Source: Escherichia coli
GTDB lineage: Bacteria > Pseudomonadota > Gammaproteobacteria > Enterobacterales > Enterobacteriaceae
Strand: one strand, 5' to 3'
Length of the DNA: 64,000 nucleotides
Assembly: GCF_030013595.1 (NCBI RefSeq)
Contig: NZ_CP122768.1
Numbering within the stretch: the stretch's first letter is position 1; every line of letters starts with the position of its first letter. A program made the position numbers. Of this stretch, positions 12,001 to 15,000 are shown piece after piece.

Positions 12001-15000
12001 TGACAGAAATTCTGCGAATTGCGCAAACCTACGAACCATGGCTGGATTTCTGGGAACTGGTTGTGCAAAACGTATCAACAATAGCCTCTCATACCGCAAC
12101 AAACCGGCCCTTACCAGAAGCGATTATGGCAAACTACCAACTGGATGAACAATTACTGGAAGGGTGCAGGCCCTAGATTGTTATTTTTGATGACGTTCTC
12201 ACTGCCGGTAGTCATTTTAAAGCGATGAAAAGCCTGATACTACAACATATTCCTGAAGCCTGTATACTGGGACTCTTTGTTGCCCGAACAACCCGGGGAG
12301 CTCAAATTATTTAAAAAGGGTAAAGTACTCCTTAAAATTAAATCACTGATTCATCGCCGTCAGCTATAATCCTGTACCCCATCGCTTTATAACCCCGCTG
12401 ACGTTTATCCCACATTCTGAGCAGCACAGGATACGCGGTATCCACAAAATCAATGATCCTGACATCGCTTTTACCGGTATGCTCTCTGTGAAGACGCCCT
12501 GCATACTGCTGTAATGTCCCTTTCCATGACACAGGCATGGCAAGAATCAGCGTATCCAGCGGAGGGTGGTCAAATCCCTCACCAATAAGTCTGCCTGTTG
12601 ACAACAAAATTCGAGGAGAATCGGGAGGAAGAGCATTCAGCCCGGATATCAGCATCGCACGCTTTTTTTTCGATAGTCGACCATGGAGAATAAAGGGAGA
12701 CAATTTCAGTGAATTCATCACTGATGCTATCTCATCCAGATGATCTGTACGTTCAGTCAGTACCAGAACTTTTCGCCCCTGCCCGAAAGCTTTCATGGCT
12801 TCTTCAGCTATCGCCACCGTTCTGTCATGATCCAGAGCAATTTCTCTGAAAATATCCTGGATTCTCGCATCCGATGGTAAATGACCAGATGTAAAACGGG
12901 AACGGATCAGTACCTCCAGATTATGTGGGCTTTCCTTCGGGCGGACCGCTGTATGGCGAATGGCACCACAGTACATAAAAATAATGGGATGCAGACCATC
13001 CCGTCGGATTGGTGTTGCCGTCAGGCCAAGCAGATATCTGGCATTCGTTTCCTTCAGAATCGCAGAAAATGAAACCGCGCCAATATGATGGCACTCATCC
13101 ACAATGATTTGCCCATAATTCCTGACCAGAGGTTCAACTTCTCCTTGTCTGGATATGGACTGCACCACCGCAATATCAATATTGCCACAGGGTTTATGTT
13201 TACCTCCCCCGATAATACCAATACTGTCACCGGCCTGCAGAAACACCGCGAGACGCTCCTGCCACTGCTTCAGCAATTCAGTCCGGTGTACCAGTATCAG
13301 TGTATTCACTTTCCGCTTGGCAATCACTGCCGCTGCGGTAACTGTCTTACCAAAAGCCGTTGGCGCACAAAGCACACCAGTGTCATAACGGAGTAATGCC
13401 GAAACGGCCTCTTCCTGCTCCGCTCTGAGGTTTCCCATAAAAACGGCATTACATTCCGTCCCGGCAAATCGTTTATCGATTAATTCTGCAGCAATATTGT
13501 TGTCCCTAAGGAAAGATAATACGCTGTCCAGACATCCCCGGGGCAACGCAATGTGTTGCGGGTAATTCTCCGCACAACCTATAACACGGGGCTTATTCCA
13601 GACTGACATACGCATTGCCTGAGCCTTATAAAACTCAGGGTTCGGAAATGCTGCCAGCCGAATAAGTCGGTTAATCAGCACCTGAGGTAATTGCGCTTTT
13701 TCGAAATAGATCTGGTTTGCCAGCGTGATTTTCAGCGGTTCTGCAATAGAAATATTCAGTCTGTTTCCTGATGATTTTTTCTCTTCCCACGGCGTACCCA
13801 GGTCTTCTTCGTTGATAAAATTCACATCCAGAGGATGGATACTCCCTGTAGCCCGTAATATCGTCGGTTCAATATCCTGCACATTCATCGGGGTCACCGA
13901 TACAAGAAAAGCCCACTGATCAGGATAAGGCTGGAGATTCATATCAACAAAAACGCTTCCCCCCAATTCACGCGGTCTTTTTTGCAGAGGTAACGCTATG
14001 AGATTACCAAATCCCCCTTTTGGCATAGTATCCTGATTAGGAAATAATCGGTCATAAGACCCCAATCGCAGCTGTCGGGTCCGACTACACGTATAGCTAA
14101 TAATAGCAGTCCCCAGACGGCGAGCTTCGCGGGCCGAAACTCGTGAGGCAAAAAATATCCAGACATGCGCCCCCTGACGTGAACGGGATATTTCCAGCGC
14201 AGCAGGTACACCCAGCTCATCACAGGATCGCATGAATGCGGATGCATCCTTCTGCCATTCAGCTTCATCAAAATCAACTGCCAGAAAATAACAGGAATCA
14301 TCTTCCAGCAACGGATACATCCCGACAGTATGGGTACCGGCCAGATGGTGGTAGATGACGAGATCGGATACAGGAATCAACTGACGGTGAGCGCAGTCCC
14401 CACATTTTATCCGGGGTTTACCGCATATTCTCGCCTGCCATTCGTTAGCGCAGGCAGGAGAGTACCCTGATTTGCCGCTGGTTTTACTTTCCCATCTAAG
14501 TGCCCATACATCATCACGCCCACGAAACAACCGACGAAATAATGCAACCTTCTCGTCGGTGGATAATACAGAAACGCGCTGCACAGGAGTCTGCGGTTTA
14601 CGTCGCCATTCAATCCCATGAGCTTCAAGTAATGAGACCAGACGGGCATTTTCTGCCCTCAATGCAGCTAATTCATCACTGTCAGATTTATGAACCATAT
14701 TCGTTACCTGTATCCGATCCACTGAGGCACCACGGCAGAAATTCGGGTCCCCTACACTGATGACAAAGCGCCCCGCCCTCTTCTGCCTATTAACTCAAGC
14801 ACCTCCCAACAACTTACAGAAACTTAATTCTAATACCTAATACAGCTGTAATTCAGTTATGTCGTGGTCGGCCCCGGTTACTTTTTTCGGGAAGCCTGCT
14901 ACGCCTCAGAATAATACCGTGTTCTTTCTGATCCTGTTTGGCCAGATAGCTAAGGGCGTAACGTAAGTCGTCTACCGCAGATTTATCACTATAGTGAATT

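Follow-up and report, generated by a model that had tools for sequence, protein, structure and literature searches.

An in-frame amber codon interrupts a PRTase-like reading frame in a 64,000-nucleotide stretch of an Escherichia coli genome (contig NZ_CP122768.1), referred to here as the window. A first-pass annotation had read this codon as the single-base inactivation of an otherwise conserved gene and had paired it with a second TAG in potI of the same window. The locus therefore raises the question of which gene is interrupted, whether the amber codon is the lesion that inactivated it, and whether the two stops belong together. Our analysis indicates that the frame is very probably a non-functional, doubly inactivated remnant of shosT, the PRTase-like toxin gene of a short-form ShosTA system, lying beside iee. 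The amber codon has no function in its own right and represents decay of this toxin gene or one part of its silencing. The coordinates of the features are collected in Table 1.

Table 1. Features of the shosT-iee locus and of potI in the window
Feature	Position	Strand	Basis
ISEc8 (IS66 family), complete, inserted into IS30; tnpC at 10043-11581	9177..11618	+	coordinate mapping (window = L016 + 8866)
Internal IS30 fragment, transposase residues ~122-203, abutting the shosT remnant	11619..11863	+	Sakai annotation "IS30 partial"; alignment
shosT remnant, codons 59-208 and the natural TAA stop of the 208-aa short ShosT; without start codon	11862..12314	+	PADLOC; P0001 identity; alignment
58-aa "hypothetical protein" ORF WP_000136079.1, internal ATG to amber codon	12000..12176	+	PGAP; L001 6401-6577, offset 5599
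Amber codon W163* (TGG to TAG) in the shosT remnant	12174..12176	+	sequence; translation; TGG in all other alleles examined
Codons 164-176, IVIFDDVLTAGSH: beta-strand and PRPP-binding loop (D168, D169, G174), 3' of the stop	12177..12215	+	alignment; AF2
iee, IS-excision enhancer (AEP-type primase-polymerase + helicase), convergent with shosT	12338..14698	-	Sakai ECs_1305; Pfam
potI codon 11, TGG to TAG, private to this strain	54299..54301	-	sequence; nearest-genome comparison

The Amber Codon Replaces a Tryptophan Codon

Translation of the plus strand at 11865-12314 gave DYHYKKAAIEYVAQ...LEGCRP*IVIFDDVLTAGSHFKAMKSL...RGAQII*, with the TAG in frame, and the residues around it in the shosT frame read LEGCRP*IVIFDDVLTAGSH. 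At the same site the intact E. coli orthologue P0001 (208 aa) has LEGCRPWIVIFDDVLTAGSH, in which the codon is TGG and encodes Trp163. TGG was found at codon 163 in P0001 and all six intact loci that we fetched (L003-L008), in the further intact alleles L012 and L013, and also in the remnant of the O104:H4 type, in strain C11 and in a fourth remnant type, L018. Because every other allele examined has TGG, W163* is, on sequence comparison, a G-to-A transition. The earlier description of a single-base substitution without a frameshift was thus borne out, and of the orthologous codons that had been expected (CAG, AAG or TGG), TGG proved to be the ancestral one.

Residue 163 itself is variable across the family (W, N, S, T, L and others). 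In the family alignment and the AlphaFold2 model described below, it opens beta-strand 163-171, which leads to the PRPP loop, and the amber codon lies 5 codons upstream of the PRPP-loop residues D168/D169. The first-pass reading of a PRTase-like gene with a stop just 5' of its PRPP-binding signature was therefore correct. According to the model, a product ending at residue 162 would be devoid of this strand, the PRPP loop, helix 175-187 and strand 192-201.

The Interrupted Gene Belongs to the ShosT Family

The PADLOC profile for ShosT (PDLC03962) matched the remnant, with the tryptophan restored, over profile positions 60-213 of 237 (E 1.8e-33) and intact P0001 over positions 2-213 (E 1.5e-50). 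In intact loci, shosT (208 aa) forms one operon with an upstream gene, shosA, which encodes a DprA-like protein of 297 aa and overlaps shosT by 4 bases (shosA occupies 7111-8004 of the intact locus L003). The upstream gene product matched both the PADLOC ShosA profile (PDLC03961, E 4.1e-103) and Pfam DNA_processg_A (E 5.2e-57). A large protein collection contained a family of 205-220-aa homologues distributed across Enterobacterales and beyond, and D168, D169 and G174 were invariant among the 31 homologues of the family alignment.

ShosTA is an experimentally characterised toxin-antitoxin anti-phage system in which ShosT is the toxin (PMC11961720; PMC12961424). The toxicity of ShosT requires PRPP binding and is abolished by the PRPP-loop substitutions D331A/D332A, which affect the acidic pair corresponding to D168/D169, and ShosA is a DprA-like antitoxin that acts without binding ShosT (PMC11961720; PMC12961424). 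Neutralisation by ShosA and protection against phage are known only for the 424-aa system of APEC O1 (PMC11961720; PMC12961424), whose ShosT consists of a pyrophosphatase domain followed by a PRTase domain (PMC11961720).

An AlphaFold2 model of P0001, built from the 31-sequence alignment, had a mean pLDDT of 89 and placed helix 175-187 after strand 163-171. When this model was compared with solved structures by Foldseek, the best PDB match was ShosT with PRPP-Mg (8zvc; E 8e-5, probability 1.00); ComF (7p0h) came second, followed by the ShosT structures 8zvd and 8zvb and then by generic type I PRTases. The link to solved ShosT required structure prediction and Foldseek because sequence searches missed it: phmmer with P0001 found nothing in the PDB, and the 31-sequence profile did not find ShosT there, returning only weak matches to the PRPP loop of HPRT (E 0.026). 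Pfam searches with the remnant and P0001 gave no family at E-values up to 1, and no match to Pribosyltran.

P0001 is labelled "ComF family protein" in UniRef. We rejected membership in the ComF family, as the TIGR00201 score was 15.2 bits against a cutoff of 233.55 (NCBIfam). The gene product shares with ComF and the type I PRTases (HPRT, PyrR, APRT) a Rossmann-like PRTase fold, a hydrophobic strand, an acidic pair and a T-x-G PRPP loop, but with a TIGR00201 score below cutoff and no Pribosyltran match this likeness is at the level of the fold only. The PRTase fold and the acidic pair of the PRPP loop are present in the intact orthologue; in the window, the codons for the pair lie 3' of the stop.

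By profile match and model, the gene codes for a short ShosT with a single domain, the PRTase-like toxin of ShosTA, tied to the characterised ShosT at the fold level. It resembles the E. coli APEC O1 system (8zvb, 8zvc, 8zvd) in that its intact relatives form a shosA-shosT operon whose products match the PADLOC ShosT and ShosA profiles, in that the closest solved structure to the model is ShosT with PRPP, and in the conservation of the PRPP-loop acidic pair. It differs in being a single domain of 208 aa that lacks the pyrophosphatase domain found at the N terminus of the characterised 424-aa ShosT, and in having a sequence similarity to that protein that neither phmmer nor profile search detects. 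The window copy is further set apart by the absence of shosA, the loss of codons 1-58 and the stop at W163. For the 208-aa short form, toxicity is predicted from its PADLOC family and its pairing with ShosA.

The Window Copy Is a Truncated Pseudogene

On alignment to an intact locus, homology in the window starts only at 11862, which corresponds to codon 59. The remnant is 96% identical to P0001 across its whole 149-codon stretch, and the missing codons 1-58 include those for the residues D9, H16, D23, C25, T42 and N43, all invariant in the family alignment. A complete, uninterrupted toxin frame is thus absent, since codons 1-58 are gone and W163 is a stop; nor is there an adjacent DprA-like shosA in the same operon in the window, where the IS30 fragment and ISEc8 lie upstream instead. 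The window copy is a pseudogene of the ShosT family and not a working member. These results qualify what had first been proposed. The substitution is real, but it is not the inactivation of the gene, since the TAG is a second lesion in a truncated gene, and "otherwise conserved" does not describe a remnant from which the start codon, codons 1-58, the region upstream and the partner gene shosA are all missing.

The 58-aa protein WP_000136079.1 is an annotation by-product of the shosT remnant, and the curated Sakai record carries no annotation on this stretch. The remnant also has an R122W substitution (codon 122, 12050-12052) at a site that is conserved in 90% or more of the homologues. W122 occurs in another remnant allele, P0009, as well, and given this sharing, R122W may predate the EHEC truncation.

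The Remnant Lies between an IS30 Junction and iee

The IS30 fragment and the shosT remnant overlap at their junction by 2 bases (cc, 11862-11863), and the other part of the same IS30 copy sits beyond ISEc8. On its 3' side the remnant faces iee, whose product matched Pfam AEP-TOTE (1.8e-98), ResIII and Helicase_C. We rejected the PGAP label of this gene, "TOTE conflict system", because it names only a domain; the gene itself is iee, corresponding to ECs_1305 of Sakai. Likewise, in the contigs encoding P0001, shosT is convergent with a gene for a 786-aa AEP primase-helicase, and iee was beside shosAT or its remnants in every locus seen. In Sakai, the junction stretch lies inside SpLE1, and its convergent neighbour ECs_1305 is annotated "IS-excision enhancer IEE".

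The boundary of the island carries a remnant resembling the 3' end of tRNA-Ser, an att-like sequence at 23080-23101 (+). It is followed by an RtT element (23144-23278, +; 48.5 bits) that ends in the same ...CCCCTCACCGCCA motif as the att remnant. Displaced by the island, the intact serW must be located outside the window, past its left end. Between the island end and clpA there are two Rfam CRISPR-DR4 matches on the minus strand (23321-23348 and 23381-23408; 50.1 and 29.7 bits), which resemble what is left of a two-repeat CRISPR array; there are no cas genes close by.

The Truncated Locus Is Widespread and Has Been Disrupted in Several Ways

We surveyed 5426 complete E. coli genomes with an 821-base query across the IS30 junction, counting matches over at least 80% of its length. 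The IS30-shosT junction was present in 473 genomes, with 100% identity among the matches listed, and its carriers include O157:H7 (Sakai and EDL933), O111:H8, O103:H2 and O26. Every junction copy that was read base by base had TAG, as did two copies with a one-base difference elsewhere. When the window haplotype with TGG restored was compared with the 5426 complete genomes, this yielded no junction copy with TGG, and identity did not exceed 99.8%.

Intact loci are a minority: of the 684 complete E. coli genomes with at least some portion of the locus, only 38 have the full shosA-shosT pair. In the O104:H4 type, which formed a 50%-covered class in the junction survey, ISEc22 truncates the locus near window position 12097 and shosA is missing. 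Strains C10 and C11 have IS100 between shosT codons 58 and 59, with shosA intact, and L018 has a different truncation, near codon 98, without shosA. The shosAT locus beside iee has therefore been disrupted in at least four separate ways.

In strain C11 (NZ_CP010133.1; L017, ~8064-9990), IS100 interrupts shosT precisely between codons 58 and 59, which is also where the EHEC remnant starts (window 11862). The shared point is either a coincidence or a hot spot for insertion and deletion.

The Order of Deletion and Amber Mutation

We lean toward an order in which the deletion came first. One deletion would have removed shosA together with shosT codons 1-58 and joined the remainder to an internal point of IS30; ISEc8 would later have split the IS30 copy, and W163* would have arisen as a later neutral substitution in the already truncated shosT. 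We favour this order because a single deletion that takes both the antitoxin and the 5' third of the toxin gene is self-consistent and does not depend on a prior mutation. TGG is retained in the other remnants that lack shosA (O104:H4 type and L018), so one-step truncation is evidently the usual route. The order is one that we infer, since neither intermediate, a junction with TGG or an intact operon with TAG, was found among the complete E. coli genomes.

It is also possible, if less probable, that W163* arose in an intact shosA-shosT operon, where it would have disarmed the toxin and made the antitoxin dispensable before an IS-associated deletion removed it. A cell is expected to tolerate loss of the antitoxin only when the toxin has been inactivated beforehand or disappears in the same event, and toxin-first inactivation is seen at the locus in C10 and C11, where IS100 lies inside shosT and shosA is intact. 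That all sampled junction copies have TAG, with no TGG junction copy among 5426 complete genomes, also fits an early amber mutation. However, none of the intact operons examined has TAG, and three other remnants or disruptions (O104:H4, C11 and L018) keep TGG. Moreover, the deletion itself takes 58 codons, including those for the invariant residues listed above, so no prior inactivation was needed. We therefore retain deletion followed by the amber substitution as the preferred order.

The deletion at shosT may have been mediated by an IS or by IEE. According to published reports, IEE promotes the excision of ISs and deletions next to them (bioRxiv 10.1101/2023.06.07.543989; PMC9943667). An action through microhomology is proposed there, with IS30-family elements among those considered (bioRxiv 10.1101/2023.06.07.543989; PMC9943667). 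The overlap of 2 bases between IS30 and shosT would fit this microhomology idea without demonstrating it.

A broader reading, which we regard as speculative and rather unlikely, is that the short single-domain ShosT/ShosA pair beside iee constitutes a distinct ShosTA subtype that has been repeatedly destroyed by IS-associated events, possibly by microhomology deletions promoted by IEE; the W163* of EHEC might then be the disarming step that allowed the antitoxin to be lost.

The potI Amber Codon Has a Separate History

The TAG reported at codon 11 of potI is present. The minus strand reads MNNLPVVRSP*RIVILL..., with the middle base of the TAG at 54300. The backbone of the window is not that of O157:H7; among complete genomes it is nearest to HCP5S3_I2, an isolate from a pig, from which it differs by 11 substitutions and 3 single-base indels over ~38 kb. 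In HCP5S3_I2, codon 11 of potI is TGG and PotI is intact (281 aa). The potI stretch of the window had an exact match in none of 5416 complete genomes. The potI TAG, one of about 11 substitutions private to this strain, could represent a genuine strain-specific knockout or, alternatively, an error in the reads. A second potI difference lies at 54038, and a 268-aa ORF starting from a downstream GTG remains.

Other differences from HCP5S3_I2 were noted. Single-base insertions are found at 50888 and 59397, one of them between artM and artJ and the other near the 5' end of rimK, where the ORF length differs from the annotation of the relative. IS content differs at 44769-46571 (-) and 59932-61140 (-): a pentapeptide-repeat gene that is uninterrupted in the window is split by IS1 in the nearest genome, and an IS4-like (ISVsa5-type) copy is at a different place.

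Because the shosT TAG is island-borne and the potI TAG is strain-private, the two amber codons have separate histories. The pairing proposed by the first-pass annotation did not hold: one stop lies on a horizontally spread island, and the other is a private SNP in the backbone. That both TGG to TAG changes fall within one 64-kb window might suggest an amber-suppressor background or programmed readthrough under which both genes would still be expressed, but we consider this highly improbable. Readthrough could not rescue shosT, because its start codon and first 58 codons, the 5' third of the gene, are gone and no protein would be restored. The same TAG is carried with the island in O157:H7, O111, O26, O103 and others, and the potI TAG is absent from the nearest genome. 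ARAGORN found no tRNA gene in the 64-kb window, the expected serW not being inside, and TAG is the ordinary stop of 4 of the 36 backbone genes (cspD, amiD, rimK and rcdA). Nor is there a mutational skew relative to the nearest genome; a mutagenesis-like pattern was rejected, the 11 substitutions being of mixed type. Pyrrolysine insertion or other recoding was likewise rejected, given the normal use of TAG as a stop in those four genes and a shosT frame without its 5' third.

Single-base differences can be errors, and the potI TAG, observed in this window alone, may be one, but for shosT a sequencing or assembly error is refuted, and the TAG is a real allele, because the sequence that bears it is identical in hundreds of independently finished complete genomes, Sakai and EDL933 included.

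Significance of the Remnant

The shosT remnant is a pseudogene, a decayed toxin gene of a known defence family. It resembles other decayed toxin genes and IS-scarred defence loci, such as those of SpLE1 and OI-43/48 of O157:H7, in its position in SpLE1 by iee, in the nested IS30/ISEc8 scar and in the independent disruption of the locus in several lineages. Nothing about the window copy is unusual in this company; it has gone unannotated (Sakai) or as a "hypothetical protein" (PGAP).

The analysis disposes of a false lead: the presence of two amber codons in this window is no sign of a suppressor background. In SpLE1-type islands, the stretch beside iee that is left without annotation or called a "hypothetical protein" can be annotated as a shosT pseudogene, and EHEC strains with this remnant are not to be scored as ShosTA-positive. 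Beyond annotation its importance is slight: the locus is a case of ordinary gene decay in a known defence-system family.
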